From sequence record MK573636: DNA of 64,000 nucleotides; one strand, given 5' to 3'. Source of the DNA: Escherichia phage vB_EcoM_PHB13. The notes beneath the pieces were generated by a model. It saw nothing but the letters and a program-made list of their open reading frames with translations, was not told the DNA's origin and ran no database searches. The position numbers and the translations under genes are program-made. This document shows positions 7,773 through 32,708 of the stretch, one piece after another. Every line of letters starts with the position of its first letter. The stretch's first letter is position 1.

Positions 7773-8429
7773 ATGAAATTGATTGCACTTTGTGGTAAAA
7801 AGCGCGTAGGAAAAGACACTGCCGCGTTAATCATTGATGGACACAGTTATCAACTGGCAGCACCGATCAAAGAAATCTTATGCGAATGCCAACCAGACTT
7901 AGGTCTGACTTATCTTGACTTTGACGGGTTGGGGCGTGACAGAGAAGCCGATCTAGGTATTGATACATACACAGCGCATAAGTGGTTTATTCAGTGTCTG
8001 CTTATGCTAGATTCGAAGTATGGCGGTAGTTCCTTTACTTGTGATAGTCTGGCTGAGATTTACAAGGTCGTTAATGAGATCGGCGAAAAACATAATAACG
8101 TCTGGTCTATTCGTCTTATGTTAACCACTCTCGGTACTGACATAATGGTTAACTTGATTAATCCGCTTTATTGGTGTAATCTCTTCGTGAATGAGTTTAT
8201 GAAGCGCAAAAGTGAAGAAGGGTATTTTGTAGTAGTTGATGTGCGTCAGCCTATTGAAATTGCTCTCATGCGTACTATGGGTGCTAAGGTGTTGCATATT
8301 CAGCGTGATACCGGTATTGTATCGACTCACTCCACCGAAAAAGGAATTTTGCCTATTGACGGTGAAACCATTATCATAAATAATGGTACATTAGAAGAAT
8401 TTGAAAGCGCGATTCTCGCGAACATTTAA
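7773..8429 (+). CDS. 1: deoxynucleoside monophosphate kinase gp1
   Basis: 218 aa; N-terminal P-loop (LCGKKRVGKDT) with the T4 gp1 pattern; synteny 3-1-57A. Confidence 0.8.
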   Translation: MKLIALCGKKRVGKDTAALIIDGHSYQLAAPIKEILCECQPDLGLTYLDFDGLGRDREADLGIDTYTAHKWFIQCLLMLDSKYGGSSFTCDSLAEIYKVVNEIGEKHNNVWSIRLMLTTLGTDIMVNLINPLYWCNLFVNEFMKRKSEEGYFVVVDVRQPIEIALMRTMGAKVLHIQRDTGIVSTHSTEKGILPIDGETIIINNGTLEEFESAILANI

Positions 8430-8722: not shown

Positions 8723-9189
8723 TTATGACCCCGTTTAGAGAATCCGTTAAAGGTACATATGCGGCGGTTAAATTCACTGAGGATACACTAGACCGCATTG
8801 AAAAATTGCAGGAGTTCTACGATCTGCCTAATGCCGTTCCTCGTGATAAACTGCATAGCACTATCTTATATTCTCGTGTCTATGTTCCGTTTATCCCAGA
8901 AGAAGGGGAGAAGTTCTTAGGCTCTCTATGCCATCTGAAAGTGTTTGAAACTCAATCCGGTACTAATGCTCTTGTGCTGGCATTTGAAAGCGACTACATG
9001 CAATTCAGACACGATATCGGCACTGCTTTAGGTGCGACGTGGGATTATCCTGAATATGTACCGCATATCACGCTTTCTTATGATGTTGGTGCGCGTAAAT
9101 TTGGCACTGACCTAGAGTTCGATTTAGAGATTGTCCGATCTCATGAGTATGTCGAAGATCTAGACCTGGAGTGGACGACCAAACTGTAA
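8719..9189 (+). CDS. 57B: gp57B-like protein, 2H phosphoesterase fold
   Basis: 156 aa with two H-x-T/S-x motifs (HSTI, HITL) characteristic of the 2H phosphoesterase superfamily; T4 57B position. Confidence 0.6.
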   Translation: MIMTPFRESVKGTYAAVKFTEDTLDRIEKLQEFYDLPNAVPRDKLHSTILYSRVYVPFIPEEGEKFLGSLCHLKVFETQSGTNALVLAFESDYMQFRHDIGTALGATWDYPEYVPHITLSYDVGARKFGTDLEFDLEIVRSHEYVEDLDLEWTTKL

Positions 9190-9196
9190 TTTTATA

Positions 9197-9226
9197 CCCC
9201 GAAAATTTTTCGGGGTTTTTTGTTTT
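9197..9226 (+). terminator. intrinsic terminator after 57B
   Basis: CCCCGAAAATTTTTCGGGG hairpin plus T-tract. Confidence 0.65.
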
Positions 9227-9232
9227 TAGTTG

Positions 9233-9261
9233 TTGACAACCATAAACGACTATAGCATAAT
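9233..9261 (+). promoter_or_regulatory. sigma70-type early promoter cassette (TTGACA-N17-CATAAT) with conserved leader
   Basis: TTGACA, 17-bp spacer, CATAAT, then leader ATCGAAACGAAACAC...AGGAGAATCAAA-ATG. Confidence 0.6.
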
Positions 9262-9298
9262 GCACATATCGAAACGAAACACACTTAGGAGAATCAAA

Positions 9299-9676
9299 AT
9301 GATGATGATGTTTAAAGATAAATTCGAATGTCACTACACCCGTAACTTTGACTTAGTATCCCGCTACTACATTCATAAAGAAACTGGTACGCAAGTAGTT
9401 CTTGAATCTCACAGCGAAGTAGGATTCGATTCAACAAAAGTAGCAATTAGTGCTCGCTTCTGGGATAACGGCAAATTTGCTTATATCGCTTGGAACGACG
9501 ACGAAAATGTAATTACAGTAGCTTTCGGTGATGACTACTACACTAAAAAGACTTTCGATAGTAAGCCATCAAATGAATACCTGAAAGCGTATGTGCAGCA
9601 CATGTTCCAACGTGTTCTGACCGGAATGGAAATCAATGTCATGAAAGACATTGTAGACGAAGTAAAATATTCTTAA
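9299..9676 (+). CDS. hypothetical early protein
   Basis: ATG 8 nt after the GGAG of the conserved leader; the ORF-track start at 9230 is a TTG inside the -35 element. Confidence 0.5.
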   Translation: MMMMFKDKFECHYTRNFDLVSRYYIHKETGTQVVLESHSEVGFDSTKVAISARFWDNGKFAYIAWNDDENVITVAFGDDYYTKKTFDSKPSNEYLKAYVQHMFQRVLTGMEINVMKDIVDEVKYS

Positions 9677-9682
9677 AAATAG

Positions 9683-9711
9683 TTGACAATATGAAACGGG
9701 GGTAGTAAGAT
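9683..9711 (+). promoter_or_regulatory. sigma70-type early promoter cassette
   Basis: TTGACA-N17-TAAGAT followed by the AAGGAGAATCAAA-ATG leader. Confidence 0.55.
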
Positions 9712-9742
9712 ACCACCACAAACAAACGAAAGGAGAATCAAA

Positions 9743-14170: not shown

Positions 14171-14362
14171 ATGGGATTTATTATGAACAAATATATGTTT
14201 TGGGCGACCATTGCCTATGTTGTGATTGCTGTAGTCTGGGGACTCTGTGTTATCGTCGCTTCCCTTATATGGTGGGAATCACTTGGCGCGGGTTGTCTTA
14301 TTAGCGGCGCATCATGTCTTATCACTGGCGTGATTGTTGGTTTTCTTATGTCGGAGGATTGA
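14171..14362 (+). CDS. small membrane protein, holin-like candidate
   Basis: 63 aa with two TM segments, upstream of the endolysin. Confidence 0.4.
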   Translation: MGFIMNKYMFWATIAYVVIAVVWGLCVIVASLIWWESLGAGCLISGASCLITGVIVGFLMSED

Positions 14363-14364
14363 CA

Positions 14365-14580
14365 ATGGTTTTCTTCGGTCTTATTATAATGGTGCTTAAT
14401 GTCATTTGTGGCGTTGCTATGTTAGCTATGGCCTTTACTGTTCCTATGTCTGTTGACAGCGCCGCGTCAGTAGGTGTGTTGGGAATTGTAAACCTGTTTA
14501 CTGCCATAGCATGTTGGATCACCGGACGCGATGAGGTAATGTATTACTTTTATAAACGTAAACAGAGAAAAGGAAAATAA
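14365..14580 (+). CDS. small membrane protein, holin-like candidate
   Basis: About 72 aa, two TM segments and a highly basic C-terminal tail (KRKQRKGK), the classic holin layout. Confidence 0.4.
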   Translation: MVFFGLIIMVLNVICGVAMLAMAFTVPMSVDSAASVGVLGIVNLFTAIACWITGRDEVMYYFYKRKQRKGK

Positions 14581-14581
14581 T

Positions 14582-14773
14582 ATGAGATTTGCATTTGGTT
14601 TTACCGTGATGTTGATTATTGCTCTGAGTATGTGTACCGGAATGCTTGTATTTGGCCTTGCAAACGGATTTGGCATTTATAATAATCCGTGGGTTGATTG
14701 GGGAATGGTTGTCGTTAATGCGATCCTGATTGGTGCTAATACAAGAACTCTATGCAGGATCGCCGGAATCTAA
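14582..14773 (+). CDS. small membrane protein
   Basis: 63 aa with two TM segments, directly upstream of the endolysin. Confidence 0.4.
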   Translation: MRFAFGFTVMLIIALSMCTGMLVFGLANGFGIYNNPWVDWGMVVVNAILIGANTRTLCRIAGI

Positions 14774-14801: not shown

Positions 14802-15191
14802 ATGTTTAAATTATCTCAAAGAAGCAAAGATCGGCTTGTTGGTGTACATCCAGACCTAGTAAAAGTCGTTCATCGTGCATTAGAACTGACTCCGGTCGAT
14901 TTTGGTATTACGGAAGGTGTGCGTAGTCTAGAAACGCAAAAGAAATATGTTGCGGAAGGTAAATCTAAGACTATGAAATCTCGTCATCTTCACGGTTTCG
15001 CGGTTGACGTTGTAGCGTATCCTAAAGATAAGGATACATGGAACATGAAATATTACCGCATGATCGCTGATGCATTTAAACAAGCTGGTCGAGAATTGGG
15101 TGTTCCTGTTGAATGGGGTGGGGATTGGTCTAGTTTCAAAGATGGTCCTCATCTACAATTGCCACACAGCAAATACCCAGATCCAAAATAA
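14802..15191 (+). CDS. L-alanyl-D-glutamate peptidase endolysin (peptidase M15 / VanY-like)
   Basis: 129 aa with zinc-binding SRHLHGFAVD motif and a second His (DGPHLQ) diagnostic of M15 peptidases such as the T5 endolysin; occupies the approximate position of T4 gene e but is not a T4-type lysozyme. Confidence 0.75.
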   Translation: MFKLSQRSKDRLVGVHPDLVKVVHRALELTPVDFGITEGVRSLETQKKYVAEGKSKTMKSRHLHGFAVDVVAYPKDKDTWNMKYYRMIADAFKQAGRELGVPVEWGGDWSSFKDGPHLQLPHSKYPDPK

Positions 15192-15874: not shown

Positions 15875-16291
15875 ATGGAATTTAAAGCAATTCAAATCAT
15901 GAAAGGTGAGCATAAAGGTACTATTATCGGTGGACACTTCGCGCCTATGATTCTGGTATCCGAACCGAAAGCACTGATCGGCGCTAAAGTAATTGTTAGT
16001 AAGACTTTCGCAGAAGACCATGCGATCACCGCAGAAGACGTCGATTCTCTGGCACTGCACACAACTAGCTTCCGTCCTGTTATTGTAGATAATGGTGCTC
16101 CTGTTGTCGAAGGTGGTCAGCATTTGAATGTTAACGTATTGTTACGAGAAATGTTGCTGGACGCTGTTGAACATCCTGAGAAGTACCCGCAGCTTACAAT
16201 TCGCGTTTCTGGTTACGCAGTGCGCTTCAATAGTCTGACTCCAGACCAGCAACGTGATGTTATCGCTCGTACCTTTACCGAATCTCTCTAA
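15875..16291 (+). CDS. autonomous glycyl radical cofactor (GrcA/YfiD-like)
   Basis: 138 aa; C-terminal ~60 aa ([59 protein letters not shown]) is nearly identical to the glycyl-radical domain of enterobacterial GrcA/PFL, including the RVSGY motif. Confidence 0.85.
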
Positions 16292-16302
16292 TTTTTCATC
16301 AA

Positions 16303-16334
16303 GCCAATCCGAAAAGGGTTGGCTTTTTCGTTTT
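16303..16334 (+). terminator. intrinsic terminator after the grcA-like gene
   Basis: GCCAATCCGAAAAGGGTTGGC hairpin plus T-tract. Confidence 0.6.
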
Positions 16335-16377
16335 ATGATGATATGATGCAATCTCTTAATCAACTGAGGGTTTAATT

Positions 16378-17076
16378 ATGCATACAATGGTTAAAATGGT
16401 CTTCGGATCTCACTTGTACGGCCTTGATACTGAAAATTCCGATAAAGATTATCGTGGTATCTTTGTTCCGACTGCGAAAGAAATTATCTTAGGATCTATG
16501 AAAGAACACTATGACCAAAGCACTAGCGGTCAAGGTATCAAGAACACCAAAGACGATATTGACGTTAATGTGTTCAGTCTAAAACGGTTTATCAATCTGG
16601 CATGTAAAGGCGATATTGGCGCTATTGACATGGTGCACGCGCCTAGTAACATGTTGATTGAATCCTCCAGAGAATGGGAATACATCCGAACACATCGCGA
16701 TAAATTCTATCATGTTGGTATGTGGGGTTTGTCTGGTTATCTCAAAAAGCAGGTAGCCAAATCTGAAAAGTATTTCAGTAACTGGAAAGATCTTTCTCAT
16801 GCTCTGCGTGTTGGTTATCAGCTACTTGAAATCTATCAGACAGGTGATCTACAATTCCCGCTCGCGCGACGTTCTTCTATTTTAGCGTGTAAATTGGGTG
16901 AGAGAACCTTTGATAATGTGCGGGAAGAATTGAAAGATCTCTACGAGCGTGTTAAACTCGCGCGTGAAGAGGCAAAGAAAAACGGTATGCCGGAAGAACC
17001 AGATGTTGACTTTTGGAAAGATTTATTAGAATATATTCATCTGACCGTTGTTCTGGAACACTATACCCGTGGTTAG
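16378..17076 (+). CDS. predicted nucleotidyltransferase (Pol-beta superfamily)
   Basis: 232 aa with N-terminal GSxxxGxDxxxSDxD motif (GSHLYGLDTENSDKDYRGIF), the nucleotidyltransferase-fold signature. Confidence 0.5.
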   Translation: MHTMVKMVFGSHLYGLDTENSDKDYRGIFVPTAKEIILGSMKEHYDQSTSGQGIKNTKDDIDVNVFSLKRFINLACKGDIGAIDMVHAPSNMLIESSREWEYIRTHRDKFYHVGMWGLSGYLKKQVAKSEKYFSNWKDLSHALRVGYQLLEIYQTGDLQFPLARRSSILACKLGERTFDNVREELKDLYERVKLAREEAKKNGMPEEPDVDFWKDLLEYIHLTVVLEHYTRG

Positions 17077-17097
17077 TTAATATAGGAGATTAAGAAA

Positions 17098-17292
17098 ATG
17101 CAAGTTTATACCAATAGCAATAAAGGACAAGATATTACGCCCGGAAAGATGTATGATTTTACCCCGGCACGAGACGACGAACATCCACCGACTATCGGGT
17201 ATATTGAAGATGATGTGGGGTTTCGTATTACGATCCTTCTTGATGGTGGATGTTCTCATCTTCGCGGTGATAAATGGGAGTTAGTACCATGA
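17098..17292 (+). CDS. small paralogous protein A
   Basis: 64 aa; shares K(M/L)Y.FTP...GYI.DD.G...GCSHL...W motifs with the next two ORFs. Confidence 0.45.
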   Translation: MQVYTNSNKGQDITPGKMYDFTPARDDEHPPTIGYIEDDVGFRITILLDGGCSHLRGDKWELVP

Positions 17293-17534
17293 TGTATGTG
17301 ATGACACCTTATAGTAGTAGATCGTACATCACCCCAAATAAACTGTATAAGTTTACGCCAGATGAAAGAATGTCTACCTACGGTTACATCAAAGATGATA
17401 AAGGATACAAACTTTTTATTTCTCTGAAAAGCTGTGCATACTTAGACGACCGTCCGTGGACACTGATCGAAGAACCAAAACAACCTGAGAATAAAGGTCT
17501 TTGGAATGTGCTAAAAAAATTCTTGAAAAAGTAG
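17289..17534 (+). CDS. small paralogous protein B
   Basis: About 81 aa paralog of 17098; ATG after GGAG SD. Confidence 0.45.
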   Translation: MMYVMTPYSSRSYITPNKLYKFTPDERMSTYGYIKDDKGYKLFISLKSCAYLDDRPWTLIEEPKQPENKGLWNVLKKFLKK

Positions 17535-17563
17535 TTGACAGCATGAAACGGGGGTAGTAATAT
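17535..17563 (+). promoter_or_regulatory. sigma70-type early promoter cassette with spacer palindrome
   Basis: TTGACA...GGGGG-TAGTAATATA-CCCCC...; the -10 (TAATAT) lies in the loop of the palindrome; leader ATCGAAACAAAGGAG. Confidence 0.55.
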
Positions 17564-17591
17564 ACCCCCATCGAAACAAAGGAGTATTAAA

Positions 17592-17927
17592 ATGAGTGTT
17601 AAAGAAGTATTTGTTTATACTGACTATGAAGGGTGTGCCTATCTCACTGCTGGAAAACTTTACCGTTGTGAGATTATTCATGGTACGTTAGGTCGAATTA
17701 TGTGCGATCCTATTACAAAATTGTGGAAAAATAATCCTAGTGAGCGAGAAACTCTTATTAACCTAGATCCAGACGGTTGTTCACATTTGGACTATAGAAA
17801 ATGGCATATAGTTACACATGATGCTTATGGTATTCATCTTGCTACTAAAGAATTAACTATTGACAAGTTCAAGTTTAAAGAAATCCCGTTTGTATACTGG
17901 CTTCGCAATTTGTTTAAGAAAGGATAA
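17592..17927 (+). CDS. small paralogous protein C
   Basis: 111 aa, third member of the family (KLYRCE...DPDGCSHLDYRKW). Confidence 0.45.
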   Translation: MSVKEVFVYTDYEGCAYLTAGKLYRCEIIHGTLGRIMCDPITKLWKNNPSERETLINLDPDGCSHLDYRKWHIVTHDAYGIHLATKELTIDKFKFKEIPFVYWLRNLFKKG

Positions 17928-17931
17928 TAAA

Positions 17932-18354
17932 ATGGAAACAATTAACGTACATGTTCGCCGTAGTAAGCTGCGTAGATTCTTCGAAACCGAAATGCGCAAA
18001 ACCAATGCGCAGATCAAAGAAAAGTGCTTGAATGATGGTTACGGTGAGTATATTTTCATTCGCTTTAGTCCGCATATGATCGACCGTCTAACCGATCGTC
18101 ATATCGATGAACATAAGACAATGGAACTATTCAATAAGGTAGAAACTCGTTTGCCGGAGATCTTCGACTTCCTGAGAATGGAAGACCGACCTAATCGATT
18201 AGAAATTACTGACGGTAACATGTGGATCGGAATGACAGTAGATCTAATCGAAGAGGGTAAACCGTATCACGGTCTATGCTGCCGAATGATTATAGAGAAT
18301 CCAAAACGACTTGCGGGTAAAATGTCGGCTGTTGTTTTGAGGGTAGACCAATAA
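17932..18354 (+). CDS. hypothetical protein; possible RegB-like endoribonuclease by position and size
   Basis: 141 aa from the ATG at 17932 (METINVHVRRSKLRRFFETEMRK...RLEITDGNMW...). Located between the e-equivalent region and tk, where T4 carries regB (153 aa). Assignment is by synteny only. Confidence 0.3.
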   Translation: METINVHVRRSKLRRFFETEMRKTNAQIKEKCLNDGYGEYIFIRFSPHMIDRLTDRHIDEHKTMELFNKVETRLPEIFDFLRMEDRPNRLEITDGNMWIGMTVDLIEEGKPYHGLCCRMIIENPKRLAGKMSAVVLRVDQ

Positions 18355-18376: not shown

Positions 18377-18405
18377 TTGACTTTCTGGTGATAGGGCTAT
18401 ATTAT
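18377..18405 (+). promoter_or_regulatory. sigma70-type promoter upstream of the transglycosylase gene
   Basis: AATGCTTGACT ... TATATTAT; -35 overlaps a TGCTT MotA-box-like motif. Confidence 0.4.
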
Positions 18406-19412: not shown

Positions 19413-19868
19413 ATGATTATTGATACTGTAAAGGGCGATCTCATCGCCCTGTTTAAACAAGGAAACGGTCATTTAATTCATGGTTGTAATTGTTTTCATA
19501 CTATGGGCGCTGGTATTGCTGCAAAGATCGCGAAAGAGTTCCCACAAGCGTTAGAGATTGACAAGCAAACTTCTCGCGGTAAGGTAGAAAAGCTGGGTGG
19601 GTTTAGTGTCTGGACGCATCAAGTTAATGGTTATAATTGGTGCGGGGTGAATCTCTATACCCAATTCCGACCGGGTCCAAATGCTGAATATGGTGCTATC
19701 CTGAAAGGATTTGAGACTATCAATGATGTTTTTGAAGGTGCTATACAGCCTTTCTATATTCCTAAAATCGGTTGCGGTATCGGTGGCCTTGAGTGGGAAT
19801 GTGTAGAAGAGATCATTAATATTGCTACTCCAGACATTAACATTGTGGTGGTTGAATATGACAAATAA
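19413..19868 (+). CDS. macro-domain protein (putative ADP-ribose binding / ADP-ribosylhydrolase)
   Basis: 151 aa; Gly-rich motifs (HGCNCFHTMGAGIAAKIA and IPKIGCGIGGL) in macrodomain-like arrangement. Confidence 0.5.
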   Translation: MIIDTVKGDLIALFKQGNGHLIHGCNCFHTMGAGIAAKIAKEFPQALEIDKQTSRGKVEKLGGFSVWTHQVNGYNWCGVNLYTQFRPGPNAEYGAILKGFETINDVFEGAIQPFYIPKIGCGIGGLEWECVEEIINIATPDINIVVVEYDK

Positions 19869-31737: not shown

Positions 31738-31766
31738 TTGACAATAAGAAATGGGAGTAGTAAAAT
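31738..31766 (+). promoter_or_regulatory. sigma70-type early promoter cassette with spacer palindrome
   Basis: TTGACA...GGGAGTAGTAAAATACTCCC...; the -10 is inside the palindrome; leader AAGGAGAATCAACA-ATG. Confidence 0.55.
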
Positions 31767-31797
31767 ACTCCCATCTAATCAAGAAGGAGAATCAACA

Positions 31798-32648: not shown

Positions 32649-32677
32649 TTGACATGATGAAACGGGAGTAGTAAGAT
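32649..32677 (+). promoter_or_regulatory. sigma70-type early promoter cassette with spacer palindrome
   Basis: TTGACA...GGGAGTAGTAAGATACTCCC... Confidence 0.55.
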
Positions 32678-32708
32678 ACTCCCATTTAAACAACTAGAGG
32701 ATTATATT

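Follow-up and report, generated by a model that had tools for sequence, protein, structure and literature searches.

An RlaP-family nucleotidyltransferase, three tandem mini-barrel paralogs and RegB in an early-gene block of an RB49-like coliphage

When a small nucleotidyltransferase (NTase) is followed by a row of short paralogous genes, do the enzyme and its neighbors work as a module, or do they merely share a stretch of genome? The question is raised by a locus of Escherichia phage vB_EcoM_PHB13 (sequence record MK573636), in a stretch of 64,000 nucleotides that we call the window. The original prediction had suggested an enzyme of the toxin-antitoxin or signalling kind, whose small neighbors could set its specificity or inhibit it. 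The five open reading frames on which this reading was built are all present, and the purifying selection acting on each of them indicates that they are real genes (against three relatives, dN/dS lies between 0.01 and 0.06 in the NTase and between 0.08 and 0.44 in the small genes). The locus and its borders contain the following features.

16301..16325, plus strand: terminator-like hairpin and T-run after vs.6 (a grcA-like gene), a 10-bp stem followed by TTTCGTTTTA, predicted to close the upstream transcription unit
16319..16347, plus strand: weak sigma-70-like promoter candidate upstream of the NTase gene, TTGGCT-17-TATGAT with extended TG, only 9 of 12 positions matching the consensus and unannotated in relatives
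16378..17076, plus strand: nrdC.11 ortholog, RlaP-family Pol-beta NTase, 232 aa (Pfam PF10127, phrog_388, RB49/Phi1 annotation)
17098..17292, plus strand: mini-barrel paralog 1 (s1), 64 aa, acidic (pI 4.6), no tail (phrog_6261, E 5e-29)
17289..17534, plus strand: mini-barrel paralog 2 (s2), 81 aa, basic amphipathic C-terminal tail GLWNVLKKFLKK (phrog_15978, E 4e-42)
17535..17575, plus strand: predicted PeSL-type cassette boundary between s2 and s3, an early promoter overlapped by a stem-loop
17592..17927, plus strand: mini-barrel paralog 3 (s3), 111 aa (phrog_6261, E 1.5e-37)
17932..18354, plus strand: regB, sequence-specific endoribonuclease, 140 aa (Pfam REGB_T4, PF10715; phrog_1323)
18377..18405, plus strand: early-promoter-like site, TTGACT-17-TATTAT, opening the next unit (vs.1, vs, tk.4 onward); GEC-3S has an annotated promoter there too

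Published Krischvirus genomes (RB49, Phi1, GEC-3S and others; 58 in all) match the full 2.1 kb at 95-96% DNA identity, and the order of the five genes is the same in all 58 records matched. By sequence comparison, the segment is an ordinary block of early genes, catalogued before, from a T4-type coliphage of the RB49-like kind (Krischvirus). It consists of the nrdC.11/RlaP nucleotidyltransferase, three tandem beta-barrel paralogs and the RegB endoribonuclease, and does not constitute a module of the toxin-antitoxin or signalling kind. An Rfam scan of the window returned no RNA families.

The nucleotidyltransferase and RegB

The first gene had been described as encoding a 232-aa Pol-beta-type NTase with the motif GSxxxGxDxxxSDxD, and its residues are exactly those (G10-S11...G15.D17...S21-D22-K-D24). 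Profile searches assign it to the RlaP/NrdC.11 family: residues 7-191 align to positions 24-198 of the 249 in PF10127 (53.9 bits, the Pfam gathering score being 23; E 2.7e-14), phrog_388 is matched at E 1.9e-79, and the RB49 and Phi1 records annotate the gene as nrdC.11. G10, S11, D22, D24, D59, D60, D62 and D84 are invariant when the protein is aligned with 12 homologs (13 phage proteins); T4 NrdC.11 falls in the same family by profile, with the GS and the Asp residues invariant in both. Judging from the alignment to the RlaP profile, an N-terminal NTase domain would be joined to a C-terminal helical domain at canonical length, and a close relative of 234 aa (P0171) aligns over residues 6-221 to profile positions 23-229 of 249. 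While T4-type NrdC.11 proteins reach about 336 aa and carry an insert of some 105 aa after profile position 142, the Krischvirus protein lacks this insert and is colinear with the Pfam model. The gene also lies elsewhere, between nrdC.10 and mobD in T4 but between vs.6 and regB here. No sequence link was found between the NTase and solved structures. By family profile and length, it is a canonical RlaP, a family of the RNA-repair type.

Members of this family from Pseudomonas add one or two NMPs to the 3'-OH of damaged RNA, an activity that needs three strictly conserved Asp residues (preprint, PMC12776372). By homology with them, the phage NTase would add one or two nucleotides to the 3'-OH ends of broken RNAs. 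No RNA ligase gene adjoins it; the Krischvirus genus encodes PseT and RnlA, as does T4, and in RB49 (95% identical here) pseT and rnlA lie about 75 kb away. The PseT kinase/phosphatase and the RnlA ligase of the phage would most likely be its partners, and the three together would restore tRNAs cut and nibbled by RloC-type host anticodon nucleases. Both this scenario and the activity itself are carried over from the Pseudomonas enzymes of the preprint and not from the phage protein.

The last gene had been listed as a 141-aa basic protein in the position of RegB. Its product has 140 aa and is basic only weakly (pI 7.8), and it is RegB itself, matching REGB_T4 (PF10715) with 163.6 bits (cut-off 27, E 4.1e-48), phrog_1323 at E 4e-50, and T4 RegB over its full length with 41% identity (BLASTP, E 5e-34). 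In T4 regB occupies the same position, upstream of vs.1-vs-tk.4. Equivalents of T4 RegB E19, H48 and R52, which we take to be functional residues, are kept in the alignment of Krischvirus RegB. The Krischvirus protein differs from that of T4 in being 13 residues shorter, with a deletion in the 80-95 region, and in having Asn at the position of T4 H68.

Three mini-barrel paralogs and their viral family

That three small paralogs of 64, 81 and 111 aa lie between these two genes is borne out by BLASTP: s1 shares 41% identity with s2 (E 2e-13) and 33% with s3 (E 1e-4), and s2 shares 30% with s3 (E 4e-5). These alignments make s1, s2 and s3 true paralogs. The motif that they had been said to share is roughly right, with the correction that s3 has GRIMCDP instead of GYI.DD.G. 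A profile built from the three revealed no fourth copy when the window was translated in all six frames, the next match having an E of 0.66. The start of s2 overlaps the stop of s1 (ATGA); with the ATG further upstream, at 17274, the protein would have 86 aa, and we favor the start at 17289 because homologs begin MMYVMTPY or MYVMTPY. The slot between vs.6 and regB holds nrdC.11 and the three small genes here. T4 Vs.3, Vs.4 and Vs.5, which come from the same slot, were considered as homologs and rejected, since the profiles give them E values of at least 0.3 and do the same on ten other small T4 proteins.

The AF2 model of s1 (pLDDT 88.7) is all-beta and SH3-like. The AF2 model of s3 (pLDDT 74.5) places strands within residues 5-74 and helices over 76-89 and 99-109; the barrel, which contains an insertion of 10 residues, is followed by a helix and then by a C-terminal helix that is amphipathic (PFVYWLRNLFKKG). 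The hydrophobic moment of the tail is 0.74 in s2 and 0.65 in s3, and both proteins may perhaps be tethered to the membrane through these C-terminal helices. The nearest matches of s1 are the single copies that other T4-type lineages carry (58-61% identity). The s2 of the window is a divergent allele, with 70-77% amino acid identity to RB49 and to two further relatives (L002 and L022) and a dS of 0.57-0.73 against these three, most flanking genes being at about 0.1. Relatives also carry a second allele type of s3 (103 aa, 39% identical) that has the same tail, and a metagenome contains a hybrid protein of copy 1 and copy 2 (P0003). The small genes probably arose through local duplication; purifying selection maintains them and recombination reshuffles them, as the divergent alleles of s2 and s3 and the s1/s2 hybrid suggest.

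The three proteins match PHROG groups 6261 and 15978, which have no assigned function, at E 5e-29 to 4e-42, each of them cross-matching the other group. The family is far larger than these groups imply: it comprises 357 representative clusters at E<=1e-3, nearly all viral and mostly stand-alone proteins of 58-70 aa, together with tandem-repeat and fusion forms. Tandem arrays of three copies (L037) and of two (L039 and L061) are found elsewhere, and P0025, P0026 and P0030 are multi-domain members. The family consensus reads Y-I-T-x-G-K-x-Y ... I-x-D-D-x-G ... C-A-H-L-x-G-x-x-W, and the median pI is 4.7 among the 90 listed members that are 56-70 aa long. No Pfam model covers the family, and searching the small proteins against Pfam, NCBIfam and PADLOC gave nothing besides sub-threshold FosA noise for s3. 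With the single motif tried, no relatives appeared in representative bacterial genomes.

As to what the mini-barrels do, the hits of the fold searches were confined to generic barrels, SH3 or KOW-like, and to uncharacterised proteins of viruses, and the family profile had no sequence match beyond noise at E<=10 among PDB chains. Gp54 of phage Bas11 (PDB 9axb), the small beta-barrel trigger of CapRel-SJ46, is an analogy of fold only, with 6% identity and no detected sequence homology, and generic SH3 domains score almost as high as it does against the mini-barrels. Fused domains gave no functional clue: the partners are all without assigned function, and one Tad2-like match of 20.4 bits is under the cut-off of 25. 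We rejected RNA binding as a primary guess because the stand-alone members are acidic. The mini-barrels are most likely independent early accessory proteins that would serve as small protein-binding modules aimed at host factors. This idea and that of the membrane tether are drawn from charge, fold and hydrophobic moment only.

Predicted promoters, a terminator-like hairpin and a PeSL-type cassette

The upstream end of the block is marked by the terminator-like hairpin, and the corresponding position of the GEC-3S record carries a terminator annotation. Within the block, the 57-nt spacer between s2 and s3 contains TTGACA at 17535-17540, TAATAT at 17558-17563 and, overlapping this promoter, a GGGGGTA/TACCCCC stem-loop at 17550-17569 whose hairpin fold was computed. 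These are the features of the PeSLs of RB49 and phi1, in which a consensus early promoter and an overlapping polyG/polyC stem-loop are repeated in intergenic spacers (Arbiol et al., 2010, PMC2839356). The window holds three more copies, at 9683, 31738 and 32649. Consensus promoter matches are observed 12 times where 0.25 are expected, and four of them have the GAAAYGGGRGTAGTAAKATACYCCC core in common, the stem showing a compensatory change from G-C to A-T. The corresponding spacer of GEC-3S has an annotated promoter. The main text of Arbiol et al. (2010) makes no mention of regB or of these ORFs. By its sequence, the s2-s3 spacer is a PeSL cassette, with predicted promoter and attenuator functions.

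From this promoter regB would share a transcript with s3. Each of the three small genes has GGAG in its Shine-Dalgarno region (at 17085-17088 for s1, 17277-17280 for s2 and 17581-17584 for s3), which is only weakly unusual because about 34% of such regions here do. Predicted cleavage by RegB at these sites would plausibly confine expression of the small genes to the first minutes of infection.

Partners or neighbors

Whether the mini-barrels belong to the NTase depends on where each occurs. A family member adjoins RlaP in three T4-type lineages only (the Krisch type, which includes L006; L009/L010; and L027), and one lies directly upstream of regB in all five T4-type lineages found (Krisch, L009, L011, L026 and L027). 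In the phage and metagenome loci examined outside the T4 type, the family has neither RlaP nor RegB as a neighbor, about 17 of these loci having at least 5 kb of flank. RlaP is missing from 11 loci of IMG/VR and 29 of metagenomes, from two Vibrio phages and from an ERF/YqaJ phage, among them many short loci and some that repeat one another, as judged with a profile that derives from T4-type sequences and might overlook a very distant RlaP. Across unrelated loci no neighbor recurs except RegB, RlaP and Vs.1 in T4-type phages, and tblastn over 50,697 records found the family only in Krischvirus and in 22 Vibrio phages. Conversely, T4 and many of its relatives have RlaP without the family, and the 12 kb of T4 that hold both nrdC.11 and regB contain no member. 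As the family occurs without RlaP and RlaP without the family, the notion of small partners of a minimal NTase is unsupported, and the mini-barrels are not supported as dedicated partners of the enzyme. Synteny accounts for the adjacency in three T4-type lineages as well as function would.

It is unlikely that an s1-type mini-barrel acts as an accessory subunit of the phage RlaP, be it a specificity factor, an inhibitor or a selector of tRNA ends. The proximity is suggestive, the family member lying 0-21 nt downstream of RlaP in three lineages whose NTases are just 46-58% identical, with a start/stop overlap and a second member upstream of RlaP in L009, and with nrdC.11, s1 and s2 forming one unit bounded by the terminator and the PeSL. 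However, T4-type genomes are syntenic, so that three lineages are not three independent events; L011 has its copy beside regB and no RlaP within 8 kb upstream; RlaP is missing from every non-T4-type locus examined; the RlaP genes of T4 and other named phages have no family member nearby; and Pseudomonas RlaP proteins are active when purified as recombinant proteins (PMC12776372). We hold it slightly less probable still that the mini-barrels modulate RegB, for instance by inhibiting this toxic RNase or acting as its antidote, or by replacing or assisting its S1 cofactor. RegB is the sole neighbor common to all five family-carrying lineages, copies flank it on both sides in L011, and s3 and regB share the PeSL promoter, but T4 RegB does without such a neighbor, with the unrelated Vs.3, Vs.4 and Vs.5 filling the slot; the family is widespread in phages that have no RegB; its acidic members speak against RNA binding; and synteny around a hyperplastic slot would yield a conserved position anyway.

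Far less probable than either is the reading from which we started, which makes the NTase either a toxin or antitoxin of the minimal-NTase type or an enzyme of signalling or anti-signalling (MNT/HEPN, MenT-like or CD-NTase-like) and gives it the small proteins as cognate partners. In its favor stand only a generic GS...DxD Pol-beta signature and the small ORFs downstream. Against it, RlaP is the sole Pfam match of the NTase and well over the cut-off, while PADLOC defence models give nothing beyond noise at E 0.033; no HEPN-like partner is present, the neighbors being SH3-like mini-barrels and RegB; orthologs are conserved across T4-type phages (6/6 genomes, PMC1524935); the gene can be deleted in T4 (PMC9825161); and its low dN/dS is typical of a conserved enzyme. 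The idea is largely refuted already: the NTase sits in a known family, and the small family does not co-occur with it beyond three T4-type lineages, being absent from T4 and from the non-T4 loci examined.

In our judgement the segment is probably a conserved stretch in the early, hyperplastic region of Krischvirus, holding three functionally separate things: RlaP, the mini-barrels and RegB. A bolder proposal makes the acidic mini-barrel of about 60 aa an unrecognised and widespread phage effector domain, a binder for counter-defence or host takeover, of which one copy in T4-type phages was perhaps recruited to modulate RlaP or RegB. We regard this as rather doubtful, if a little less so than a subunit of RlaP.

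The NTase and RegB are known and annotated T4-type genes, and the main gain for them is that the block need not be mis-filed as a toxin-antitoxin or signalling system. Free of the T4-specific insert, the Krischvirus RlaP would also be a convenient minimal phage enzyme for tests of the proposed tRNA 3'-end restoration. As for the three hypothetical proteins, their viral mini-domain family is large and has no Pfam model, and tandem amplification recurs in it along with allele swapping. Families with this behavior have often proved to be host-interaction or anti-defence proteins, and by analogy with that pattern the mini-barrels may have an effector or host-interaction role.

Organization of a block shared by Krischvirus

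Five tightly spaced ORFs lie on the + strand at 16378-18354, which confirms the gene arrangement on which the original prediction was built:

16378-17076, +, RlaP-family nucleotidyltransferase (nrdC.11), 232 aa
17098-17292, +, s1, first small paralog, 64 aa
17289-17534, +, s2, second small paralog, 81 aa
17592-17927, +, s3, third small paralog, 111 aa
17932-18354, +, RegB, 140 aa

The s2 start codon at 17289 overlaps the TGA of s1 (ATGA); starting at an upstream ATG (17274) would extend s2 to 86 aa, and we retained 17289 because homologs open with MMYVMTPY or MYVMTPY. Minus-strand ORFs of the region are short and nested in the + strand genes, GC skew is positive throughout, and Rfam found no RNA family in the window. 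The 2.1 kb block matches 58 phage records over its full length at 95-96% identity, all of them Krischvirus (including RB49, Phi1, JSE, GEC-3S, Brandy and E26) and with the five genes alike in all, so that it has been sequenced and annotated many times before. In the RB49 record the first gene is named nrdC.11 (nucleotidyltransferase) and the last regB, with three hypothetical proteins (RB49p097-095) between them; vs.8 and vs.6 lie upstream and vs.1, vs, tk.4, tk and rI downstream.

Upstream of the block (14171-14773, 14802-15191, 15875-16291) we noted a row of three small ORFs, hydrophobic and membrane-like, together with an M15 peptidase that is labelled endolysin in RB49 and the GrcA-like glycyl-radical protein Vs.6; downstream lies the Macro-domain protein Tk.4 (19413-19868). 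Relatives carry an HNH/NUMOD4 homing-endonuclease gene between vs.6 and the gene that follows (loci L002 3247-3774, L006 3951-4547 and L011 7248-7811), for which 16292-16377 of the window is an empty site, an 86-nt spacer with a terminator only.

The nucleotidyltransferase and RegB

The first gene product matches Pfam RlaP (PF10127) with 53.9 bits (gathering score 23) and PHROG 388, "nucleotidyltransferase", with an E of 1.9e-79, and G10, S11, D22, D24, D59, D60, D62 and D84 are invariant in 13 phage homologs, in keeping with the Pol-beta type first ascribed to it. Other T4-type NrdC.11 proteins have about 336 aa and align only to its first ~130 and last ~95 residues; they (P0247 and others) carry an insert of about 105 aa after RlaP profile position 142, where their alignments to the profile stop, and this insert is missing from both the Krischvirus protein and the Pfam model. 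Since a close relative, P0171, aligns through residues 6-221 to positions 23-229 of 249, the Krischvirus length is the canonical one, and the seemingly minimal enzyme is, judging from these alignments, a standard RlaP. The family owes its name to a linkage with RNA ligases, and is predicted to refill nucleotides lost at cleaved RNA ends ahead of ligation (PMC7824862); two Pseudomonas members add one or two NMPs to RNA 3'-OH ends, with a preference for damaged RNA, in a 2025 preprint that also assigns T4 NrdC.11 to RlaP (PMC12776372). nrdC.11 was present in 6/6 T4-type genomes compared in 2006 (PMC1524935), and that of T4 is deletable (PMC9825161). In RB49, the genes for PseT and RnlA are located some 75 kb from nrdC.11. 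PADLOC gave no defence-system match for the enzyme, a sequence search found no relative of solved structure, and dN/dS against three relatives is 0.01-0.06. Taken together, the family match, catalytic residues, length, RlaP biochemistry, conservation, PADLOC result and selection argue for a conserved RNA-end-modifying enzyme, and against the toxin-antitoxin or signalling role that had been proposed.

The ORF noticed for its RegB-like position is, by sequence, RegB itself, a sequence-specific endoribonuclease (REGB_T4, E 4.1e-48; 41% identity to T4 RegB). It has Asn at about residue 67 (ELFNK) where T4 RegB has His68 (ELFHK), which we take to be catalytic; equivalents of E19, H48 and R52 of the T4 protein are conserved.

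Breadth and neighbourhood of the small-protein family

The three small proteins are true paralogs (BLASTP E 2e-13, 1e-4 and 4e-5), with no further copy in the window. They match PHROG 6261 and 15978, neither with an assigned function, and nothing in Pfam, NCBIfam or PADLOC. A word-indexed search returned Krischvirus-like relatives only; a profile run exhaustively over 1.84 billion representatives returned 357 clusters (E<=1e-3), which places them, by sequence criteria, in a large, functionally unassigned family of phage mini-barrels with the consensus MKVKTDY..C.YITAGKVYE...G.I.DD.G..I.I...CAHL.G..WE.V. Among the 150 members listed, most stand alone at 58-70 aa, P0025, P0026 and P0030 have two to four tandem domains per polypeptide, and some bear C-terminal extensions without assigned function; median pI is 4.7 (n=90 listed members of 56-70 aa). 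Independent tandem copies occur in unrelated contigs (three in L037, two each in L039 and L061). One member was seen on a 626-kb metagenome contig (SWBZ01006464.1, L058), and several long proteins of 340-439 aa have two to four tandem mini-barrels (P0026, P0030; L046, L047).

Could these proteins be dedicated partners of the nucleotidyltransferase, as specificity or inhibitor modules? Every locus in the comparison was searched with a profile of the family, of RlaP and of RegB, the RlaP profile being built from an alignment of T4-type homologs only and many metagenome loci being short. Krischvirus-type loci (window, L001-L006, L022, L050, L053) read, where complete, RlaP, three copies, RegB; L006 breaks off beyond its second copy and L053 contains many errors. 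Two other uncultured T4-type lineages have RlaP beside a copy: L009 and L010 read copy, RlaP (335 aa, 46% identical), copy, RegB, the RlaP of L009 having a member on each side (607-843, 847-1854, 1854-2048) of which the downstream one overlaps its stop codon, and L027 reads RlaP, copy, RegB. In the T4-type locus L011, regB has a member on either side (8001-8186 and 9102-9392), the first preceded by vs.6 and HNH and the second set off from regB by one gene, with no RlaP within 8 kb upstream. On the short T4-type contig L026, which shows no RlaP, a copy precedes RegB by about 0.6 kb, a single 85-aa gene separating the two. Neither RlaP nor RegB was found at 11 IMG/VR loci, Vibrio phages helene 12B3 and 355E48.1, L029 (an ERF/YqaJ-type phage), L012 and 29 of the 31 metagenome loci, about 17 of the non-T4 loci scanned extending 5 kb or more to one side. 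All-against-all clustering of neighbours gave no common family outside the T4-type group.

T4 carries both nrdC.11 and regB, yet the surrounding 12 kb contain no family member, and the interval from vs.6 to regB is occupied by Vs.5, Vs.4 and Vs.3, unrelated to the family. By tblastn against 50,697 phage records the family appears in 58 Krischvirus records and 22 Vibrio phages only, RlaP homologs are named in many Tequatrovirus-like phages, and one motif tried on representative bacterial genomes found no relatives. Because co-occurrence at the loci scanned is confined to T4-type synteny, the family is not a dedicated RlaP partner, and a functional coupling of s1-s3 to RlaP is unlikely. In T4-type phages the steadiest neighbour is regB; these genomes being syntenic, that adjacency is inseparable from shared ancestry, and we consider coupling to RegB unlikely as well. 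The original prediction thus stands in its description (nucleotidyltransferase, paralogs, an ORF in RegB position) and falls in its functional idea.

Expression, allelic variation and possible role

Downstream of vs.6, a hairpin resembling a terminator lies at 16301-16325. In the s2-s3 spacer (17535-17575), TTGACA-17-TAATAT overlaps with a GGGGGTA/TACCCCC hairpin, and another consensus promoter follows regB. Because of these signals, the likely transcription units are nrdC.11-s1-s2 and s3-regB; the GEC-3S annotation has a terminator and promoters at equivalent places. The window has 12 consensus early promoters against 0.25 expected by chance. The spacer element (TTGACA..GAAAYGGGRGTAGTAAKATACYCCCAT) is present in four copies, each just upstream of a gene start, and a compensatory G-C to A-T change among them keeps the stem paired:

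9683-9735, PeSL-type element
17535-17575, PeSL-type element, between s2 and s3
31738-31790, PeSL-type element
32649-32700, PeSL-type element

Its sequence fits the PeSL cassettes, units of promoter and attenuator found beside shuffled ORFans in RB49 and phi1 (Arbiol et al., PMC2839356).

GGAG occurs in the Shine-Dalgarno region of each of s1, s2 and s3 (17085-17088, 17277-17280, 17581-17584) and is absent from those of nrdC.11 and regB; among + strand genes, crudely called, about 34% have it. As RegB of T4 cuts GGAG in the Shine-Dalgarno regions of early mRNAs, the s1-s3 messages are plausible RegB targets.

Within Krischvirus, RlaP, RegB and Vs.1 are 96-99% identical as proteins, against 70-77% protein identity between s2 of the window and those of RB49, L002 and L022. 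Positions of s2 in the window and at two of the loci:

window 17289-17534
L001 4990-5232
L002 4699-4941

Because s2 dS (0.57-0.73 against RB49, L002 and L022) is far above that of most flanking genes (~0.1, at 95-99% identity), and dS also rises locally at regB and vs.6 of L002, s2 of the window is taken as a divergent allele, and the pattern points to a recombination mosaic. s3 comes as two allele types of 39% identity with a common C-terminal tail, the second (103 aa; P0019-P0021, L002 5001-5312) having an identical KFKFKEIPFVYWLRNLFKKGE; the metagenome protein P0003 (83 aa) joins an s1 N-terminus to an s2 C-terminus at GYI.DD. With dN/dS of 0.08-0.44 in the small genes, the variation of s2 and s3 reads as recombinational mosaicism under purifying selection and not as decay.

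For s3, structure prediction (pLDDT 74.5) gives a barrel with two helices after it. Strongly amphipathic basic segments end s2 (LWNVLKKFLKK, 17499-17531, hydrophobic moment 0.74) and s3 (FVYWLRNLFKK, 17889-17924, 0.65), similar in amphipathicity to the FtsA membrane-targeting helix; s1 has no tail. Judging by their charge, fold and tails, together with context and the dynamics of copy number, we tentatively suggest that s1-s3 may be early accessory proteins that would bind host factors independently of the nucleotidyltransferase, s2 and s3 perhaps tethered to the membrane by their tails, and that their expression would be turned off by RegB. The block itself is already known, and what is mildly novel here is only the breadth and behaviour of the mini-barrel family.
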